From Microthyrium microscopicum (lineage: Eukaryota), in contig MU004243.1 in NCBI GenBank assembly GCA_010405405.1, positions 553,340-617,339 on the forward strand: DNA of 64,000 nucleotides. Reading direction: 5' to 3'. Position 1 is the first letter of the stretch; the number at the start of each line of letters is the position of its first letter. Positions 10,470-41,459 of this stretch are shown one piece after another. The translations under genes were made by a program, and so were the position numbers. The notes under the pieces were generated by a model. The model was given only the letters and a program-made list of their open reading frames with translations. It was not told where the DNA came from and did not search any database.

Positions 10470-11681
10470 TCAGTTTCCTGATCCTACCGGTCTGTTGCTT
10501 TCCCACCCTGTTAGAAACTGGCAGAAATTTTCACCCAGCTGCTCTAGAGCATAACCACCTTCCAGAAGGATTACACAAGGAAGCCTTGCGATGATCTTCG
10601 ATGCGGTTATTTTACGCGCTATGCGAAAATAATCGTCCGACTCAAGCTTGAAACTGCCCAACACATCCAGGTGAAAAGTATCGAAGCCCATGCTCACTAC
10701 CAGATATTCGGGCCGGTATTCTTCTACTCGCCTGAGAGCAGTTTCCAGTAGTTCCAGGTATGCTTCTGCTGTAGATCCAGCTGGAAGAGGTAGATTCAAG
10801 TTGAAGCCTTCTCCCTTTCCTTCACCCTTTTCGTCCACATGGCCCGTAAAGTAGGGATATTCATCTTGTCCGTGAATACTCACATAAAGTACTGAAGGAT
10901 CCGAGTAAAAATATTCCTGCGTTCCGTTCCCATGGTGGAAGTCAATGTCTAAAATAGCAATGTTGGGGCTTGCTGCCGCTGACCGCCTCTTGTGCAGCCG
11001 TTGCATGGCAAGTACCGCGATTACTGCATTGTTAATGTAACAGTAGCCACCTGCCATTGACGTCGTACAATGGTGTCCTGGTGGTCGGCAGAGCGCAAAC
11101 GCGGTCAAGCTGCTGCTCGTAGGCGCTGCTGCATGGTCGTCTCCAACACCAACAACCCCAACGGCTCCATTGCTGCTAGCCTCATGGCCGGCGGCAAATC
11201 TGGCCGCTTCAACGGCAAGATTTGCACTCGCTAAGGCCGCTTTCCACGTGTCTTTACAGATGCCTGCGCTCATGTCAAAAGCGTAAAAACCCGCGCGTGC
11301 AAAAATGTCCTTGGGAGGCTCAGCTAACCTCGCCGCAATTGTGCGGTTGCGCGAGAGGCGATGCGAGGGAAAGCATTCGGGAAGTATCGTGTCGGTGGGT
11401 TCGAGCAAGCCTTGCTCGATCCATGCTGCATGCGCCGTCTTAAGATGGTGGAGATAGTCACTATCATGGCTGTTGGAAAGGAGATCCAGAAGCAGGGACC
11501 CTTCGCCAACGGCTTCAGGGTGTTCTTCAATGTTTAGTTGGCGGACAGAATGCTGAGTTTGTTCCAGTGCGGCCAGGATGATCGTTATGCGTTCTGGTGA
11601 TTCTAGGGCCGGCATAAGCCGTGATCCTAATAACTCGACAGTTTTGTGAGAGAGGGTTGTGGGATCCGTTAGTATCAACAT
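10470..11681 (-). CDS. Histone deacetylase superfamily, acetylpolyamine amidohydrolase (AphA-like), intronless
   Basis: RPPGHH, GGYCYINNA, LDIDFHHGNGTQ, SIHG, GEGKGEGFNLNLPL, SMGFD and LEGGY motifs. Confidence 0.9.
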   Translation of the reverse strand: MLILTDPTTLSHKTVELLGSRLMPALESPERITIILAALEQTQHSVRQLNIEEHPEAVGEGSLLLDLLSNSHDSDYLHHLKTAHAAWIEQGLLEPTDTILPECFPSHRLSRNRTIAARLAEPPKDIFARAGFYAFDMSAGICKDTWKAALASANLAVEAARFAAGHEASSNGAVGVVGVGDDHAAAPTSSSLTAFALCRPPGHHCTTSMAGGYCYINNAVIAVLAMQRLHKRRSAAASPNIAILDIDFHHGNGTQEYFYSDPSVLYVSIHGQDEYPYFTGHVDEKGEGKGEGFNLNLPLPAGSTAEAYLELLETALRRVEEYRPEYLVVSMGFDTFHLDVLGSFKLESDDYFRIARKITASKIIARLPCVILLEGGYALEQLGENFCQFLTGWESNRPVGSGN

Positions 11682-12303
11682 TTAGCTGGCGTGGCAACAA
11701 ATGCAATGGCGCGAAAGCACCACGGCACAGTCGATGAAAAACGATCCGAAATGTCTTTGTGCCCGCTTTCGGGTCGAATTTTGGTGGCTGGGGGAAGCTG
11801 CTTTCCCCTCATAAAATCGGGATTGAAAAGTGGTGCTTTGGGCATGCGTGAGAAGATATTGCAATAGCATAATCGGATTGAATTTACCATTTACGTATAT
11901 GCGAGCAGTAGCACGTTACCAAAAGAAGCATGGAATGTAAGTGTTTTTGGACACTGATATCAAAATTGAGACCTCCACACTTCTAGGAATTGGATCGTCT
12001 CCATGAAGTATGTAGAGTTATTAAATTTGTGGCTCTTCCTGTTCTAAAATAATTAAGATACTAGGATGTAGTAGAGCATATGTCTTGCCATATTGTCATT
12101 TCCTTCATCTGCTACCTTTCGTCTAACAACTTTACCAACATGTACCAACAAACACCTATATCCATCTAAACCTCATCCTCATCCTCATCCTCATCCAACC
12201 CATCCCCCCCTTCCCTCCCTCCCTACATCCCCAAAAAAAACCACCCTCTCCCAAAACCAACTATCTTCAACCCCTCCACACTTCCTCAAACACGCCAGGA
12301 GCC

Positions 12304-12310
12304 AAAAAAA
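12304..12310 (-). terminator. Pol III oligo-T terminator of tRNA-Pro
   Basis: T7 run 3 nt downstream of the discriminator base. Confidence 0.8.
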
Positions 12311-12313
12311 TTG

Positions 12314-12456
12314 GGGTCTTGCCGTGACTCGAACACGGGGCCTCTTCCAAGATCGGGAAGTAAAATACCCTAAGGAAGAATCATACCACTAGACCACAAG
12401 CTGCAATAAGTTAGGTTTATGTAACGAAAAGTAGGCCAGAAAATTTAGCTTACACC
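12314..12456 (-). tRNA. tRNA-Pro(AGG) with an 18-nt anticodon-loop intron (12350-12367) and a 53-nt spliceosomal-type intron in the acceptor stem (12401-12453)
   Basis: Spliced sequence: GGT|CTTG TG GTCTAGTGGTATGATT CTTCC TTAGGG|T GGAAG AGGCC CCGTG TTCGAGT CACGG CAAGACC C. Acceptor, anticodon and T stems are all perfectly paired. Confidence 0.88.
12401..12453 (-). other. U2-type spliceosomal intron inside the tRNA acceptor stem
   Basis: GTAAGC donor at 12453, CTAAC branch point at 12414-12410, TTGCAG acceptor ending at 12401. The 53-nt length matches mRNA introns in this window. Confidence 0.85.
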
Positions 12457-12504
12457 GCAGTTGAGAATCGACGATTTTCAAGGACAAATATTGCCTGTTT
12501 TTAA

Positions 12505-12511
12505 TTATATA
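12505..12511 (-). promoter_or_regulatory. TATA box upstream of the split tRNA-Pro
   Basis: TATATAA about 50 nt upstream of tRNA G1; the surrounding sequence is AT-rich. Confidence 0.45.
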
Positions 12512-13142
12512 ATGTAAATTTCAAGCGTTACAAACTTGGACTTGAGTGGGCAGATATGGGTTTCTAGAGAGAATTTCGGAGCTGTCAAATATAAGAGCAT
12601 TAATTAAATTATTTAAATAGGTGGTCAATGGCAAAGAAATACCTAAATTCAGCGCGTAGTCGCCCAAGGGTACTCCTGGAAGCAAATATCGAGGAAGATT
12701 GTTAAATTATGTATAGATCCTCGGTTCAAGAACAGGCGTACTGCTCGATAAGGAACTCAATATCTATTTCCCGCGAGGTAATAAAAGGCTGTAGAGCAAG
12801 ACCAATACCGTGATGAAATATTCAATCCCGTATCAAGAAAGAAATATAATAGAATAGAGGACAAACACACATGTGAGATGAAGCAAATTGAAATCACAAA
12901 TTATATCATTACAGGCTACTCGCTAAATCTATATTACATTGGCCATCAGAATTGACCATTACCGTTACCAAAACATATACCCTTTTTTGTTCATGTTGAG
13001 TTGACTGCAAGCCGCAAGCAAGTGAAACGAACACTGCATTGTGATGAGGCAAGCCTGTAAGCATGATAACTCTAAAACTTAATTAATGAAAGCTTTGCTG
13101 ACTTGATTTCTTCTTGACGTGATCTTGACCAAGGCACGAACC

Positions 13143-14815
13143 TCAAATCATTGCAGCCATGGCGAAAGCAAGGAACAGAGAAGCCAGAGACAGTTGCATC
13201 GAATTGGCTGAGCCAAGATATGGCGATGGAACAGCTGGTGTGTTTGTGATATTTGCAGTCGCGAATGGGTTCTGAATGCTCGTCTTTGTAGCAGTGGTGT
13301 TGAATGAAGTAGCCGGGATGGTATTTGTATGAGTGGACACGGAAGCTGTCGGGTTGGCAGTATTGACAGGAGAGATCGGAACTGGAATTGAACCGTATCC
13401 AGGAGGAGGAGGTGGAAGATTGATAGAGGTGGAGGTCAGAGTGATGGTGCTCCCACTTGAGCTGGTAGGGCGAGTCAAGGTTATTGTCTTGGTCTTACTG
13501 ATAGTGTTGGTCAACGTAGCTGTGGAATCCTGATCTGGTGGTGTGGCAATTGGAGACACTGGAGAGGGCACCGGGATCGTCAAAGTGGAGGTGGAGCTGA
13601 TGGTAATTGTTGAGCTGCCTGGAGAGCTGAAGATCGGGGAGACTGCGGAAGATGGGACAGTCACGGTGATTGTTGACGATGAAGCCGGAGAGCTTGTCAC
13701 GGTGATTGTAGACGATGACGCCGGAGGAGAGCTAGCCACAATACTTGAAGAGGAGGATGGCGAATATGCTGGAGGGGGTCCATAGCTCTGAGGTGGTGGC
13801 GGAAGAGAAAGCACGGTTGAAGAAGATGATGCTGGTGGTGGAGGAACCGCTCGACTCGATGTCACCGTGGGATTGGCAGTTGATGGCGACGAGGCCGGTG
13901 GTGAGAAAGCTGGTGGTGGTGAGGAAGCTGGTGATGATGCAGCCGGTGGTGACGACGGTGAGGATACTGGTGGTGGAGGTCCGTAGCTCTGGGGTGGTGG
14001 AATCGCCGGGCTAGATGTTGCCGTAGGGTTGGCAGTTGATGGCGACGAGGCTGGTGGTGAGAAAGCTGGTGGTGGTGAGGAAACCGGTGGAGAGAAAGCT
14101 GGTGGTGGTGAGGAAGCCGGTGGAGAAGATGCCGGTGGAGATGCAACTGGTGGTGATGTTGGCGATGATACCGGTGGCGGAGGTCCATAGCTCTGTGGTG
14201 GTGGAAGGACTGGGCTTGAAGTAGCCGTTGGGTTGGCAGTCGATGGAGACACAGTGCTGGAGACAACCGCAGAGCTTGGCACAGGCGGAGGCGCTAGGAT
14301 CGACGAAGGCAACGAGAAGCTTGGAGAGAAGCTCTCAGTGGCCGAGGGCTTGGTCACAGCAACACTGGAAGTGATTTGAGTCTCTGGGCAGATGGTGGTA
14401 ACCTTTGGAGTGGTAACCGTGATGACAGTGGTAGAAGAGCCGGGACAATTGGTAACGGAAGAAGCACAGCTAGTGACAGTGAGTTCCGAAGTCACGTAGT
14501 AAGTTGAAGTAGTGATCGGAGCATCAGTATGAGTGACAGTCATGGTGGTCATTGAGTAAGCTGGCGCGTGTTAGACTTTGCCCAGACTATCAAAACATGA
14601 CGCATCCGGGCCAACTTACAGGCAATGTTGTCAGCCCAGCGAGGGTTGATGCCGGCGTGTTCGCGATCATTGAGAACACCACCTCCACGAGGGACATAGG
14701 CAGCGTTGGCCACAGACGCGGCTTCAAAGAGTTAGTTGGAATGTTTGTACACAAGTTGTTGGTGGAGGCATGACGTACCAAGGCCTACAACAGTAGACAG
14801 CTGAAGAGCGAGCAT
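13143..14815 (-). CDS. Ser/Thr/Pro-rich, probably GPI-anchored cell-wall protein
   Basis: Two 5' introns give the signal peptide MLALQLSTVVGLAASVANA. It has a TVTSCASSVTNCP motif, repeats PPPQSYGPPP / TANPTATSS / SSPPPAFSPP, and a hydrophobic C-terminal tail after YLGSAN. Confidence 0.85.
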
Positions 14816-15856: not shown

Positions 15857-18800
15857 CTACTCAACAGCCACTCGTCTACAGTGTGGGCAGCCCTTGCTAG
15901 CAATCGTCTTGATCATCTGTGCATGTGCGACCTTGGCGCCCACGCTTCTTGTAACTCCGATCTCTTCATCCGCCGAAGAAACCACGAGCTGCTTCTGTAG
16001 GCTTTGCGCCGTGGCGATGGCTAGTTCATCGTCAAGCGTCGTTATTATGCAAGAAAGGTGGTAGATATGACCACAAGCAAATCCAATCAAGATATCCTTG
16101 TCTGCAATTCCATTAGTATGTCACAAGATAATCAGTCATCTCAAACAACTTACCATCAACCATGAAGGCCTTTCTACACCGTACACAATGCCCTGGTTCT
16201 GGTGGCCGATGTGACGGTTGCTCTTCTTCTTTTGCCGTGACTATTTCTTGATCACCTTTAGTCGTTTTAGCATCCGTAGTCGCAACTTCTTTTTCTCCAA
16301 GCACGTCAAATTTGACACCTCTTTGCCGACCGTTGCGTAGAGCTTCCATGCCCCCTGCCACCTCGCCTCTGAGTACTCGGGCGACTCCTTCGCTAATGCT
16401 ACCTTGGATTTCGTACTCTCTGACCATTCGCCTGATACCATCACGGAGGCCTTCAATTTCCAGCCCCTCTGGGATTCGTCGGACAAGCTTGATAGGATCA
16501 ATTGCTGTGCCAACCTCTTCCAATAACCCTTTGATGAACCCCGGCTTGTCCATGGAGAATTCAAGTAGATCATCCCATAGCTCGGCATCTTCCTGTTCTT
16601 TGGCAAACTCAATAGCGAATCTGACATCACCTAATGAACTGATAATCAAACCCAGTGCTCGCTTAGTTTGACCTGTTTGTGACAACAGGTAAACTAGCTC
16701 CGGAAAGTATTGTTTTTGTTCACATAGTGCTGTGGCTTGCTCGTACGAGTAACTCCTCGATTGTCGAAGGAAATCCATGAGATTGGTGCGATCATAGTCG
16801 GCAAAGAGAGCGACCGCCAAGTCACCAAAATCTTCCACAGCCATACGACCTTCAGATTGGAATCGCTGACTACTGAATCGATGCGATTTTGTGTCTATAG
16901 TTCCGTGACCTTTCCATAGTGCGCGGAAAAAGAAAAACAGGAATGGTCGATATTGATTGCCTTTCGCCTGGATCTGCTTCACAACCTTGTCTGGCTCTAT
17001 TGCTCCTTTGATGGATTCTTCAACGAGCATGCGTACGGCCTCCGTAATATTTTCTTCCAGTTCTGCTAAATTCGCGGACACTAGTTGATCTCGGGAGACC
17101 CTTAGCATCAAAAAGCCAACTACATCTTCAGCTATTGATTCAACCAGGTGATATTCGCTGATCAGATCCATTGCAGCATCGGCATTCTGCAGTTTGATGT
17201 AGCATCGCAGAGCTTCCTTTGGGCGACCATCGGCAATATAGAGTTTGGCAAGAGCGTCGAGTAATATTCGCCAGTCTCGGCCTTGCACACCATCCTGAAT
17301 AGAATCTTCACTAGCATCTCCATCTCCAAGTCTCTTTTCGATGGCTGCAGTGACATGTCCAATGTTGAAAAGCTCTGGCTCCCAACTATCGATCAAATCT
17401 TTGAATCGAATGCGATCTCGAATGATATAGTGACCTAAGAGCCGCTCGTACACAATGGAAGGTATTCGAGGGGTTGTCGGCTTGTTGGGGATATAGGGTG
17501 TTATTTCGTTGAACCTGCCGGCTTGTGCAAATTTCCATACCCAGTGCTCCCATCGAGGTGATGCTCCAAGAACTTTCCCAGCAGTTTGACCTGCATTAGC
17601 CCAGTCGTCTGCTGCAACAAGTTGTTGAATCCAAAGATCACCAATTCGGCGAGCTTCATTTTCAGTCGCCCTTTTCTGATTTTTGGTTGCGGAAAGGGTA
17701 GTTTGAGAAGCCGAGTCATCTGCGAAAAAGTCTACCAAGCTCTGCCGCTTTAAAGGAGATGCTGAACCATTACCGTCCTCGATGGAAAAGTCGTCGCTAG
17801 ATGTGGCAATGACTTCAGGGTGATCCTTCACGAGCTCCCAAGCCTCTTTGTATTCTTCATGTTCCAACAACCATTGTAGATGGTCTGCAAGATCTCTTTT
17901 GAGGGCTAAGACGCAATCGTAGGGGCTTTGCACAAATAGTTTGAGTCCGGATGTAGCTGACAAAGGAACCGCTTCGAGGGAAGGATTGCGAGAGGGCGAA
18001 GCTCCTGGTACTTTGCTGAGACTACCTTGGCGTGTAGCAGGGGATGCAAATGCATTATCACCACTTCCAGTACCACTGCGTATACTGGCCGCAGAGCTGA
18101 ATATTCGAGTTGCACTAATGCTAGCATCCCAGAGGCCTCCACTAAAAGCTTCCAAAGCACTTCGTTGGACAGTGCTAGCTATTGGAACAGTTGGCACGAA
18201 AAGAGTCCCGAGATGATAGTCCGCGGCAGAAAGCGACTCATAGCGACTCATTGTCAGCGTGTCAACATCGACTTCTTCTTTGGAATTGACATCAATGAGT
18301 CTGAGCTCGGGCGATAGTCCCGTTTGACGATGGTGAACACCTCTTCTTGGTGTTGTTTGAACCATGACTGGAAGAGGTTTGTCTTCGTCGTCTCGAGTTC
18401 TATATGCGAGTACAGCCAGTAATGAAGGTGTGTAGAGAGATACTCCCGACACTATACAATCATCAAAAAGGAGACTATGAAACATAAGTAAAGATAGTCC
18501 GTCCAGGATTATAACTTACTGGTGGAGAATGGAGGCGCTGCCGCTTGTTCGTTTAGAATTGTCCCGTCCAGCGTTGTGTTCAGCCTTGACCTGGACGACC
18601 CACACAGTATCTCCCCATCCTATGACCAATTTTTCTGACCTCTTCTTTTTATTCACCACGGGCGTTTGGCGAGCTGAATGTAAGGCAGAGAGAGCGTTAC
18701 GAGCAGGAGTTTCGGGATGACCACCATTCGTGACCGAAGGCTCATCGTCGCCAGTTTCAAGCGATTGATCATCAATCCACTCAGCACGTGCTTTCCATAC

Positions 18801-19999
18801 CCCAGCCATGTCTTCCCATTTTGCTCGATTTGGCCGATCAATATGGCCTATTCGATTCCAAGCCAGTTCCGAATCACCGCTTTCGAGGTGGGAGTTCGTG
18901 CGCATAATCTTGACTCCTTGTTCATTCACCCACACGACAAACTTGCCAGTGTGAGACCATTTGATCACACTGATGGGACCTTCACCGGAATGAATTATTC
19001 GATCGGATCCAGTATTTGTGCCCAGGCCAATGCTGTTGAGCCAGCCGGAGGCCGCAGAAGACGCCAAGTTAGTATTTGCTTTGGCACTCACGCCTGATCT
19101 ACCTCCAACTGTGAGTATCAAGTTTCCTGCCAGCCCACCAGAGAGATATGATCGATCATTTTTATAGTCTTGAGATAGTGCCACGGCCGAAACTGGCCTG
19201 GAGAAGTTTCGAATAGTGACATCTTTGTAGTCAACCAGGTTCGCAACACAAACATGGCCGTCAATGGAGGATGTGGCAATATAAATGGCATTAGATGGAC
19301 TAGCAGGTATGGGATTTTGTCTCGGTGTCGCAGGAGATGGTGCTGGCTTCGAATCGGGGTTTTCCCTTGCGGGAGATGAAGTAGGCGCATCACTGTTTGG
19401 AAGTGGTCGGGGAAAATCTGTTTTCAGGCTTGAAAACGGGAGTGGAAAAGGAGAGACGGAGACTGCGGTAACGCTAGCAGAATGCGCATTATAGATCTTC
19501 AAGGGCTGGAAGGTTGGCATAGATAATATCGCCTGTAGCTAATTAACGATGACCATTTCAGGGACATGTATTCCTCTTACTATGTTTCCATTGTGAGTGC
19601 CTATGATCTAAAGAATAATTCAGCATCGGATCGAGTTTGACTTGTATAGAAATATACCATTTTATCTCCGCCGACCAGGAAACTACTTGTCGCATCTCCA
19701 TTTCGATAAACAGAACTCAATTTTCCGGTGAGCCTGTGGTATTTGAGCCTGGGCTCTTCGTCGGCGCTGTCATTCTCCTCTGCGCTGTCGTCATCCTCGT
19801 CCTCTCCCTCCAGAGAGACATCTTCGTCTTCGGGCGCATGATTGCGCGGAGTTTCTGAGACCTCTTTTTTTGAAGACTCGATGGGCTTGGAGCCCCCGGT
19901 CGTAGTCCGAGAAGGTGTTATAGGAGGGCTTGAAGGCGTGGGCCTGGTGGGTGATCTGGGAGACTCTTCGGGTGTATCGTCATGAGGCTCTGTCGCCAT
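15857..19999 (-). CDS. VPS41: HOPS complex subunit Vps41
   Basis: EEPRLKY..L, GTHNG micro-exon, WD40 region, clathrin-repeat region (ELVYLLSQTGQTKRAL, LWDDLLEFSMDKP), and a C-terminal RING (C..C / CGHIYHLSC / CPHC) across the last intron. Confidence 0.95.
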
Positions 20000-29279: not shown

Positions 29280-30802
29280 TCACTTCTCACCAGAGAGCAG
29301 CGAGTCAAAGACAGTAGTCTTGACCTTGGTCTTGTCTAGGTCCAGCACAGCTTGCACTTCGTCATCTATATTCTTCAAGAATCTCTCCTTGTCCCACTTT
29401 GGTTGCCAGCCAAGTCGATACGCATTGACAGGCACGAGCTGCCCACTATATCATGCGTTAGGTTTTGATTTCTTGTCCATGATGATGAATGCTTACGAAG
29501 TGGTTCCCATAGCTCGCAGAAACATACGTGGAAATCCTAGGTAGTCTGCTGCCACCTCATCGCTAGGCCAGAACGGTGTTTTAGGCTCTTCCACAAGCCC
29601 GCGGGCATACAAAGCCTTAGCAAGACCGTCCATGATTTCCCACCAACCCACTGTATGGGCTATTGCAAAATAGTAGCCATCTTTACCACTCGGAATAGGA
29701 GTTCCTTGCAGGATTCTCTCCGTAAGGAGACCATAGAGTGCTACCAGATCGGAAATATGCGCTGTGGGCGGATTCTGTAAAGTAGGCAGAGCGTTAGTAC
29801 AGTATACTGAAATCCAATTATGTTGCAATTTGGTGTCTCGGTCTGACGTTCATGTTGCTCTCAATGCAAAAACTCGTTTGGGACTTACACCGTCTTTATC
29901 GAATTTATAGACAACTTTGTGCGCAATGCCGGATCTGATATGTGCTGGGATATTTGCAGACAGCTTCTTCCACTGGCCACTGCCTCTTCCGTCTATTGAC
30001 ACATAAGCTCGGCTTCATTTGGGGGAATTTCGGGGTGTCTTTCAGGGCACATACAGACGAATGGTAATGCAATGTTGATGCTCGTAACACCCAACGTTTG
30101 AGCTAGTTCAACGACGAGGAGATTGGTCTTGTCAACATGTTAGAAGAGGCACGTTCACGAGGGGCTTTGGACGAGGGAAGTGAGAGACTTGCCTTTCGAA
30201 CCGGATTCTGGTCCCCCATTTCCTTCTCCTTCTCAAACAAGGGATCCGTATCCCGAACTTCCCCATCCTCCCAGCCGACCTCAGGAGCAAACAAGGTGGT
30301 GACAGAGGACTAAAATCTCATCAATAGACCAACAGATAAACAAAGGGCAGAAATACTTGCGTGTATGAAATATGTCTCCTTTCCACTTATTTCGCGGTTC
30401 CGACCAAGGCCTTTGATAAGGTGAGAAGCGAGACGGGAATCCATGGAGCTCGCTGTGTGAATAACAATATCGACTAAAGCAATGTGAGTCGTCTTTACGA
30501 ACTTGTCCAAGAAGCCTGTCATGTTTACATACTCTTATTGCTGACTATAACTTCCATCACGGCCGTTTCGTCACTGAGATCGACTTTGACCACATTGACA
30601 CCCAATTTTGACAAGCTTTGGCTCTGTTCCTCCGATCGAACTGCGGCGCTGATATTCGCTGCCTTGATTGGGCCAGCTGTACGTGATATGAAATCCGCGA
30701 CAATTGAGCCTCCGCTGTGAATGTGTTAACTGAGTACAACAATATGAATGGTGCGTTGTACATATAGCCAGCAGCGCCGGTGATGAGAATGTTCTGACCC
30801 AT
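29280..30802 (-). CDS. NAD(P)-binding Rossmann epimerase/dehydratase-like (atypical SDR) protein
   Basis: NILITGAAGY.GG, VIHTAS, HISDL..LY, GYYF and LGWQP. Multi-exon, with two GC-AG introns. Confidence 0.85.
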
Positions 30803-39800: not shown

Positions 39801-41459
39801 ATCTTCGCGAGTACGGATTGCACCTGAAGCTGATGCTATTCGCGTGGGACCCGAATTGCCTAGTGCTTCAGCTTGCAAACTAGCATTATTACTCAATGGA
39901 TTCATAAGTGGAGAGCTCTTTTCGCTCAGTTGAGAGGCAGGGACATGACCATGTTTGGAGCTGTCATTGGAAAGATATGGTGCCATGACATTACGCAAAC
40001 TGTAATCCTCAGATCCTCGAAGACCGGGCATCAAATTAATCTTGTTTACAGCGGCATGTTGAGGAGGTTGCTGGGGTTGTTGAACTTGTTGGGATTGTTG
40101 GGTTGGAAAGTTCAGGGGTGGTACAGGGGGTATTGCATCCATATTTTGGTCAATTGACCGTTTGCGATGCCGTCGAAAGAAGGATGATGATGATTTTCGT
40201 AAAGTGTGATGCTGGTTGACGTTGTCGCCTCTAGAGCTGCTATCTGCGCCCTGAGTAGGAGGCCGAGATATAGACTTGTACGAACTCGAGCTATATTGCT
40301 GCGACGGCTGTGTTCTTGGTCTTTCTGATGTAGTGCTGGATGTCGCTGGAGGTTCTTCTTCCTTTTGGTGCTTTGAGCTGCCCCCAAAAACGCGTCGAAA
40401 GAATCCCGTCTTCTCTTTCGGTGCATGAGCAGGTGGCGAGGGAATTGACTTTAACCTGCTGGCAGCCGTAGGGCTAGTCACGGCCGACGGAACGGAAGAA
40501 GCAGATGTAGAAACAACTTGAGCATTGCGCAAATTATTCGTTGCGGATACAAACTGTCTAGCCTGATCCATGATAGTGGACGGGTCTTGATTAGGATTGC
40601 CATTTTGTTGTTGAGCGGCTTTGCTTTTACGAAAGGTTCTTGATGACTTGACACTATTCTGCCGTGAAGGTCCCTTGCGCGGTGTTACTGAAGGAGGAGC
40701 AGTCGATGAGATTGAGTCCTTGTGCCTCCTAGGTCCTCCTGGTATTGTGGGCGTCGGCGCAGCATCGGCATCATCATAATCGTATATCTCAGGCTCTGGA
40801 CTTGAAAGTGGTGGAGGGCGAGGAGCGCGCCTTGATGTGTTTCTCAGTCCGCCATCATGAACAGAAGTATCAAAACTGGCACCGCGAGTAGGTACATGCA
40901 CCATCGGCGAAGCATGTCCGCTCAAGACTGGGACAGCGCCCATGTCTTTATTGGAGCCATTGCTAGTCTTCCGCGCGTGCTTTGAGCTGGATCTTGTAGG
41001 GTATGGCATTTCAGCCTCGGTAGCATTCGGGGCGAGTGCCGTGGACGGAGGAAACGAGTTTGTATTTCGCGATCGCGCGGCGTCTGGGGTTCGGGGAGTA
41101 GGGACAAGCGGAGCATTGGCGCGTGCCTGGGCGTGGTATGCGCTGTACTTGCTCGCAATGTCGTCGATGTTGGTTGTCTTGAGCTCAGAGTATGAGGAGG
41201 AATGGCTATGAGCACGGGTAGGCTGTCCGTTGGGCTGCGGTGGTACAAGATACGGGTCGGGATGGGTAGAGGTAGGAGGGACAGGTTGGACAAGGTTTGG
41301 ATCGAAAGTAGAGGGAAGAGCAGCAGAGGGGTCACCAGGAAAGCCAGCCAATGATAAAAGCATAGAATCGACAACACTGTAACGGGTGAGTTGTACAGAG
41401 AGGTCGTGCGAGTCGCGATCTCGTGGCCGGTGAAGAACGTCGGGAGGTCTAGTGTCCAT
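36879..41459 (-). CDS. Sec7 + PH domain Arf guanine-nucleotide exchange factor (Syt1-like)
   Basis: Sec7 motifs LRAESQELDRVIDAFS and ILAYSLLMLNTDLH. PH region GAPWAKEG ... VNYWSARLS. Single 1526-aa ORF. Confidence 0.9.
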   Translation of the reverse strand: MDTRPPDVLHRPRDRDSHDLSVQLTRYSVVDSMLLSLAGFPGDPSAALPSTFDPNLVQPVPPTSTHPDPYLVPPQPNGQPTRAHSHSSSYSELKTTNIDDIASKYSAYHAQARANAPLVPTPRTPDAARSRNTNSFPPSTALAPNATEAEMPYPTRSSSKHARKTSNGSNKDMGAVPVLSGHASPMVHVPTRGASFDTSVHDGGLRNTSRRAPRPPPLSSPEPEIYDYDDADAAPTPTIPGGPRRHKDSISSTAPPSVTPRKGPSRQNSVKSSRTFRKSKAAQQQNGNPNQDPSTIMDQARQFVSATNNLRNAQVVSTSASSVPSAVTSPTAASRLKSIPSPPAHAPKEKTGFFRRVFGGSSKHQKEEEPPATSSTTSERPRTQPSQQYSSSSYKSISRPPTQGADSSSRGDNVNQHHTLRKSSSSFFRRHRKRSIDQNMDAIPPVPPLNFPTQQSQQVQQPQQPPQHAAVNKINLMPGLRGSEDYSLRNVMAPYLSNDSSKHGHVPASQLSEKSSPLMNPLSNNASLQAEALGNSGPTRIASASGAIRTREDGDSRQLPTRSFSDLPSSSPTLDTSTSFYDSTHESSTLVDSLHSEAPMPSRPAPVPKKASSLGVHIPTSRDHLSLSVRTSSNDRPLLSPISDRSFYSAHRSLSSGTAARPQLDVDDDFLIPQESANSSHSSPQPPRNNRVWLRPSDSEEKIGERAKQQSETAKTFNGLFSEPLSVDFEEDNDKDIFHSVESLPIVQIDAKNVDMSSASNITDQDRELAQQIYDGDETNITKSSAAAWLGQNAAPNARTRHAYMELYDWTGSNILASFRELCTRLILRAESQELDRVIDAFSDRWCEANPAHGFKDKHVVHILAYSLLMLNTDLHIAESAQRMTRSQFVKNTLPTLRSVADSSVENSETIRQRQKQDRGALSTDNPSTPLTPQFAQGERPSLDVIVNRNRFSRLPPTRSDSEGGPPEGEGSNILVNAPWEGSMKGWEAQVETVLKEFYTSIRTVHLPLHGSNERSTSELPRGRQQSGATLSVVASALRRTPSVLSKAPSENASFRGRPGDMRSSQSRFASKSRNRPRMYPSSTFTFGSSRTSLDDGSMWSPAASTFTKHSFGKTQTSMSVESLGTWTRGLAPIGFANAVSRKIIREENAADNIASSADSIDLEGRAIPLLENEDLELQGAPWAKEGILTHIQWTGTNGKRHKERNRPVEIFAVVSKGCMRLFSFPGSQSTSGKSALRHLRQHKNKPSSSSGNSGKVVGGGNWQDNASELGEFTLRQTWAVADLKSRSASDKLTWYLHLPTGEIHAFIVNSVELAEEWTWTVNYWSARLSRQPLIGGVSSEEYGWSDHLLSSSSHPPSTSHTSSPGQSSQPTSTPHTRPGSSTSHASLSNSHASRTSLTLPGDRAHLSEWRPPAYSVNTSQLHEVDQKSALEDYLVSLDEEFSHHSEVRPHMANAFTARHGNAAKALTNWTRRANYLTGEHVKYKTYIGALERAGKKKEVVEAEMEKAAALKGDDGELEKEMVVQT

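Follow-up and report, generated by a model that had tools for sequence, protein, structure and literature searches.

Spliceosomal introns in non-coding RNA genes are known from snRNAs, U3 and rRNA. The U6 introns of S. pombe and other fungi resemble the locus described here in that a GT...AG intron with a branch site lies in a small Pol III non-coding RNA gene; many of them look like species-specific insertions, and they are proposed to have arisen through reverse splicing and then reverse transcription (PMC5855946). The introns of Rhodotorula U1, U2 and U5 and of ascomycete rDNA are also of mRNA type and reside, as here, in abundant structured fungal non-coding RNAs; those of U1 and rRNA show that the host RNA need not be near the active site (PMC5855946). 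However, Pol II or Pol I transcribes these last hosts, which include no tRNA and no gene with an additional TSEN-type intron. In the passages concerned, the review of U6 names spliceosomal introns in U6, U2, U5, U1 and rRNA genes, and none in tRNA genes (PMC5855946), and the relevant part of a 2025 paper assigns spliceosomal introns to Pol II transcripts and tRNA introns to the tRNA endonuclease (PMC12530127).

Other known systems resemble this locus at the acceptor stem. Archaeal tRNA introns of the bulge-helix-bulge (BHB) type at position 3/4 interrupt the stem at the same point, and their removal must precede 5' trimming, as it would here. BHB introns at position 3/4 occur also in red-alga and nucleomorph tRNAs. 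In mitochondrial tRNA 5' editing of the Thg1-like kind, the genes encode mismatches in the first three pairs that need correction, as here (PMC4284800, PMC3061083, in the parts that deal with this editing); in contrast to this locus, the process belongs to mitochondria, involves no intron signals and does without an upstream exon.

The window (the whole stretch of DNA analysed, 64 kb) comes from the nuclear genome of a eukaryote whose GT-AG introns are short; its introns and genes suggest a filamentous fungus. On its minus strand, positions 12456-12314 hold a tRNA-Pro(AGG) gene with a run of seven T as terminator, a normal 18-nt intron in the anticodon loop and, within the acceptor stem, a 53-nt insert of spliceosomal type. 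The features of the locus, in the direction of reading, are as follows.

12505..12511, minus strand: TATATAA, 49-55 bp upstream of tRNA position 1, of putative function; the sole evident candidate for driving a start before exon 1
12454..12456, minus strand: exon 1, GGT, tRNA positions 1-3, following the leader ...CAACTGC; its partner in the stem, after deletion of 12401-12453, is ACC at 12317-12315
12401..12453, minus strand: insert of spliceosomal type, 53 nt, between tRNA positions 3 and 4 (motif and ARAGORN analyses)
12453-12448, minus strand: donor GTAAGC of the 53-nt insert, read from the sequence
12440..12447, minus strand: AT-rich TAAATTTT within the insert, 44-51 bp upstream of the A box; candidate seat of TFIIIB under the tauA ruler model
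12414-12410, minus strand: branch motif CTAAC of the 53-nt insert, with the branch A 10 nt before the insert's 3' end
12403-12401, minus strand: acceptor CAG of the 53-nt insert, read from the sequence
12368..12400, minus strand: tRNA positions 4-37, i.e. the remaining 5' acceptor strand (position 4 begins at 12400), the D arm and the anticodon stem
12396-12386, minus strand: A-box region in the D arm (sequence and ARAGORN structure)
12371-12369, minus strand: anticodon AGG (sequence and ARAGORN structure)
12350..12367, minus strand: ordinary TSEN-type 18-nt intron after position 37 (ARAGORN i(37,18); one base further reads identically)
12314..12349, minus strand: tRNA positions 38-73, i.e. 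the 3' anticodon strand, variable loop and T arm (sequence and ARAGORN)
about 12335-12325, minus strand: B-box region in the T arm (sequence and ARAGORN)
12321-12315, minus strand: 3' acceptor strand (sequence and ARAGORN)
12314, minus strand: discriminator C (sequence and ARAGORN)
12304..12310, minus strand: run of seven T, Pol III terminator, 3 nt past the discriminator

When the locus is read contiguously, the 5' acceptor strand pairs at four of seven positions, the mismatches being C-C, A-C and G-A; with the insert removed, ARAGORN draws an acceptor stem of seven Watson-Crick pairs out of seven, in a cloverleaf with conserved D and T loops that the seven T follow. Both counts had been given in the initial annotation, and the sequence and the drawing bear them out. 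The annotation had also expected that a tRNA scanner would probably call the intact locus a pseudo-tRNA; ARAGORN missed the unspliced locus with its defaults and found it at one of six thresholds (only -ps95), against all six, up to -ps110, when 12401-12453 was removed in silico. No decay is seen in the gene: as the annotation had further stated, the other arms, the A and B boxes, the anticodon-loop intron at position 37/38 and the terminator are intact, and so are the three splice signals. A search of Rfam gave no match at gathering scores in the whole window, nor at E values up to 10 in 12200-12600.

The tRNA-Pro(AGG) is the only credible tRNA that ARAGORN reports within the 64 kb. When introns are allowed, the program also proposes a tRNA-Lys (398-nt intron) at 39882-40373 and, if the threshold is relaxed, a tRNA-Pro(TGG) (921-nt intron) at 18094-19109, within Vps41; both are probably false positives. 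A CATCCT hexamer microsatellite followed by C-rich tracts occupies 12158-12230, just past the tRNA terminator.

The insert was compared with the introns of the genome by means of two motifs: a loose one (GTRAGY, with CTRAY 3-25 nt before YAG and a length of 40-120 nt) and a strict one matching the quality of the candidate itself (GTAAGY, CTAAC, 45-70 nt). The window contains 37 matches to the loose motif, where 200 dinucleotide shuffles of it give 24.3 +/- 6.8, and 12 of the 37 (11 donors) join long open reading frames, with lengths of 47-114 nt, mostly 47-82; the 53 nt of the insert fall inside that range. Its GTAAGC donor, of the GTRAGY type seen in the window's own introns, also starts the frame-joining intron 29446-29496. 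The strict motif was found seven times, from five donors including that of the insert, whereas 100 shuffles averaged 0.33 matches and never exceeded 3, an enrichment of about 20-fold. Of the four remaining donors, two belong to introns that join long open reading frames, and a third is flanked by 37 and 471 open codons. The probability that a loose motif ends at one given base is 1.8e-4, and falls to about 2e-6 if it must also be preceded by GGT (200 shuffles); by our own arithmetic, the probability that a random 53-mer shows all three signals (donor, branch and acceptor) is about 3e-6. The initial annotation had pointed out the GTAAGC...CTAAC...CAG block, which is indeed read at 12453-12401, and had judged the GGT before its donor improbable by chance on top of the splice signals; these statistics agree with it and give good support to its central claim of a spliceosomal-type intron whose removal rebuilds the stem.

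The intron appearance could also be fortuitous, the insert being filler DNA or the remnant of a small mobile element in a dead tRNA copy. That the loose motif is common makes such a coincidence easier to accept, and we are dealing with a single locus and, in effect, with a single genome. We nevertheless regard a non-intron origin as rather improbable in view of the enrichment of the strict motif and the rarity of a 53-mer with all three signals, to which the structure of the insert ends is added. Introner-type elements often bear short inverted ends, according to the part of a study that describes them (PMC12730881). The ends of our insert show no direct repeat of at least 6 nt and no inverted repeat (two 6-nt inverted repeats lie elsewhere than at the ends), the two junctions share no base by eye, and no second copy is present within the 64-kb window, where the best other match is 10 nt. 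An insert of transposon type was thus rejected for want of a target-site duplication and of terminal inverted repeats, and one from a repeat family within the window for want of a second copy. An assembly artefact was rejected as well, because the identical contiguous insert recurs, with 0 differences, in contigs from three runs of two studies (X3 and X4, from one sample, and X5, from another). In all, contigs of four runs were compared with the window; X6 gave no match, and no contig showed a junction at the insert.

A non-canonical intron of the TSEN type calls for a BHB, here taken as two 3-nt bulges with the cut sites and a 4-bp helix between them. No such structure could be drawn in any of the four registers, in which the offsets of the cuts sum to 3 and are never equal, and this kind of intron was rejected for the lack of a symmetric BHB. 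In this respect, the insert differs from the BHB introns at position 3/4, and it carries spliceosomal signals instead. In the sole helix that adjoins both cuts, the leader and exon 1 pair with the final seven insert bases, and the fold of the precursor is no better than that of shuffles (z = -0.26). On the minus strand, CTGCGGT (12454-12460) can pair with ATTGCAG (12401-12407) over 7 bp, two of them G-U; such a pairing would join both splice sites and is not significant by the fold z-score. Both the non-canonical TSEN-type intron and the transposon footprint are therefore unsupported, since there is neither a BHB nor a repeat at the ends.

We count the 53-nt block as an intron because of its rarity among shuffled and random sequences, its restoration of the stem and its genome-like signals: by every sequence criterion of this genome it is one, placed to the base. 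Summed over the readings weighed here, a spliceosomal type and origin of the insert are very probable on the grounds that the strict motif is enriched, that the other types of insert failed and that the sequence was found independently.

The tRNA itself was compared with other tRNA-Pro(AGG) genes, using tRNA positions 8-37 (12396-12368) as the query in a scan of metagenome contigs. There were 51 matches in 40 loci, identical to the query over 12396-12368 and all from distant eukaryotes. Both ends were in view in 49 of them: the contiguous acceptor stem pairs 7/7 in 47 and 6/7 in the remaining two, and none of the 49 needs an insert removed. The acceptor stem of our locus was not found among the 51 matches, which include no close relative. 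Collections of genome contigs and of viral contigs, searched with two patterns each, gave 0 matches. One metagenome contig, from an AT-rich eukaryote, bears a dense tRNA-Pro array in which eight tRNA-Pro(AGG) matches (overlapping loci L038 and L039) lie on both strands within about 4 kb, each preceded by a similar upstream block.

The explanation that we place first, and to which we give about half of our confidence, is that the copy is young and probably crippled; we infer its origin, its start site and its loss of function. A nuclear tRNA-Pro(AGG) gene, intact in all other respects, would have gained a spliceosomal-type intron exactly between its nucleotides 3 and 4, by reverse splicing and subsequent reverse transcription and recombination. 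This origin is proposed because the insertion is base-perfect and without target duplication, as that route predicts. We know of no precedent for reverse splicing into a tRNA. For the introns of U6, U2 and U5, reverse splicing is the origin put forward in the portion of the U6 review devoted to them (PMC5855946). Unlike U6, the host here is a tRNA, a molecule outside the spliceosome, and proximity to the catalytic centre cannot explain the insertion. A second difference from U6 is the position of the insert, which separates the start site from the A box and should disturb initiation by Pol III.

The starts of tRNA transcription lie some 10-25 bp upstream of the A box. In the present locus, position 1 is 60 bp upstream of the A-box start (12396) and exon 1 is 58-60 bp upstream of it, a spacing that departs from the one expected of an active type 2 Pol III gene. 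[quoted passage not shown] TFIIIC should then place TFIIIB on the insert itself, where the AT-rich TAAATTTT at 12447-12440 is at about the right position. The basis for this placement by distance is the tauA ruler model, as outlined in the section consulted of a study of budding yeast (PMC11724288), and it may not hold for this fungus. A transcript with an internal start lacks the GGT exon and the 5' splice site and is therefore not spliceable; it would mature, if at all, to a tRNA with three unpaired acceptor positions. For splicing to yield a normal precursor, transcription would have to begin upstream of 12456, as the TATATAA at 12511-12505 might bring about. The crippled copy was ranked first because an internal Pol III start would omit exon 1 and the donor.

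Such an internal start could also be followed by repair, if the three mismatched 5' nucleotides were replaced by templated 3'-5' addition, in a Thg1-like manner. The mismatches fall exactly in the first three acceptor pairs, which is the known pattern of 5' editing in the portions of the two reports that treat it (PMC4284800, PMC3061083). However, this gene is nuclear, and the repair would leave unexplained a correct GGT before a textbook intron, whose chance expectation was given above as about 2e-6. Furthermore, to our knowledge ascomycetes have a Thg1 specific for tRNA-His and not enzymes of the repair type, and we consider this explanation most improbable.

Some observations run against the crippled copy. 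The intact gene and splice signals fit function as well as youth, judging from the sequence; a canonical TATATAA lies upstream of exon 1 and could possibly serve there; and fungal Pol III transcripts can be spliced, as S. pombe U6 is (PMC5855946). The gene could then be functional: a precursor started upstream would be spliced by the spliceosome, and the restored stem would let RNase P, RNase Z and TSEN finish the maturation. The gene would then be the first tRNA gene to need the spliceosome for its maturation, with splicing of 12453-12401 preceding RNase P and TSEN, a proposal that we find unlikely and yet by no means far-fetched. It draws on the perfect restoration of the stem in a gene whose other tRNA elements are intact, on an insert indistinguishable from the genome's own introns and on the TATATAA 49-55 bp upstream of position 1. 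There is also the precedent of S. pombe U6 as a spliced Pol III transcript, fungal U6 genes having up to four introns according to the U6 review, as far as its account of them extends (PMC5855946). Splicing has been demonstrated for S. pombe U6, whereas the insert in the tRNA-Pro is known here from DNA sequence. The promoter geometry weighs against function: exon 1 lies past the start position given by the tauA ruler in the passage that defines it (PMC11724288), and the insert offers an AT-rich element of its own at about the right distance for an internal start. The initial annotation, which had proposed maturation by the spliceosome and then by TSEN, overlooked this obstacle.

The tRNA gene sits in a 1.4-kb spacer, and its neighborhood is as follows.

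10473-11681, minus strand, the same as the tRNA: gene of the histone-deacetylase family, which starts at 11681
12008..12057, plus strand: candidate 50-nt GT...AG intron (GTATGT...AG), absent from the X5 contig
12058..12597, plus strand: probable last exon of a transcript antisense to the tRNA (X5 contig, insert unspliced)
13146-14570, minus strand: Ser/Pro-rich gene with no Pfam family
16116-18515, minus strand, the same as the tRNA: Vps41 gene

The spacer is bounded by the Ser/Pro-rich gene and by the deacetylase-family gene. The former is an open frame of 475 aa with an extreme content of Ser, Pro and Thr, SSPPASSPPPAFSPP-like repeat units and a strict-motif intron (14561-14619) at its 5' end; the product is probably a cell-wall or secreted repeat protein.

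X5, a run from another study and with another organism label, was only guessed to be RNA. Its single matching contig (2371 nt) is collinear with 12058-12597, with 0 differences and 0 gaps and with the 53-nt insert retained; the alignment skipped 12158-12230 as a repeat. To the left of 12058, the end of the contig equals 11978-12007 and joins directly to 12058, and 12008-12057 is absent. Most simply, X5 would be RNA, and a plus-strand transcript that is spliced would cross the tRNA gene in antisense, although a 50-bp deletion in the DNA of the X5 strain would give an indistinguishable contig. The suggested plus-strand transcript, 11978-12597, diverges from the promoter region of the deacetylase-family gene and shows no long ORF started by ATG. 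That the sole contig of this probable RNA run keeps the insert might be held against a functional gene, but the contig probably represents the opposite strand and contigs drop rare forms; on either reading, it says nothing about the splicing of the minus-strand tRNA precursor.

The same contig bears on another way of splicing the insert, namely as an intron of a minus-strand Pol II host transcript, with the tRNA cut from the spliced host RNA. Either a non-coding RNA or an extended 5' leader of the histone-deacetylase-family gene that starts at 11681 might act as the host. The TATATAA at 12511-12505 stands before exon 1 at a Pol II-like spacing, the deacetylase-family gene lies downstream on the same strand, and the X5 contig is unbroken from the region of that gene to 12597 (its left end being estimated from the contig size). 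However, the only splice visible in the contig (12008-12057) has its GT...AG borders on the plus strand, which makes the RNA plus-strand at least in part, and the 53 nt are retained there; in addition, the tRNA gene has its own seven-T terminator and box elements, like an ordinary Pol III gene. We take a Pol II host to be improbable, and the young, probably crippled copy continues to be our first explanation.

We found no spliceosomal intron in a tRNA gene in the literature searched, whose coverage was incomplete, and absence from print is unproven; the initial annotation had likewise known of no described case. What is known is the presence of spliceosomal introns in non-coding RNA genes, and what is new is the tRNA as a class of host. 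Introns of non-coding RNA genes are the main natural evidence for intron gain by reverse splicing into RNA, and a tRNA host would extend this evidence to the most abundant Pol III transcripts. As tRNAs are outside the spliceosome, the case would also bear on what decides where new introns land. If the gene is functional, one small RNA would be processed by both eukaryotic machineries of intron removal, which would overturn the textbook division between the spliceosome for Pol II transcripts and TSEN for tRNAs, and tRNA scanners would systematically miss such genes. If it is a dead copy, it would still be a rare and datable fossil of an event of intron gain.
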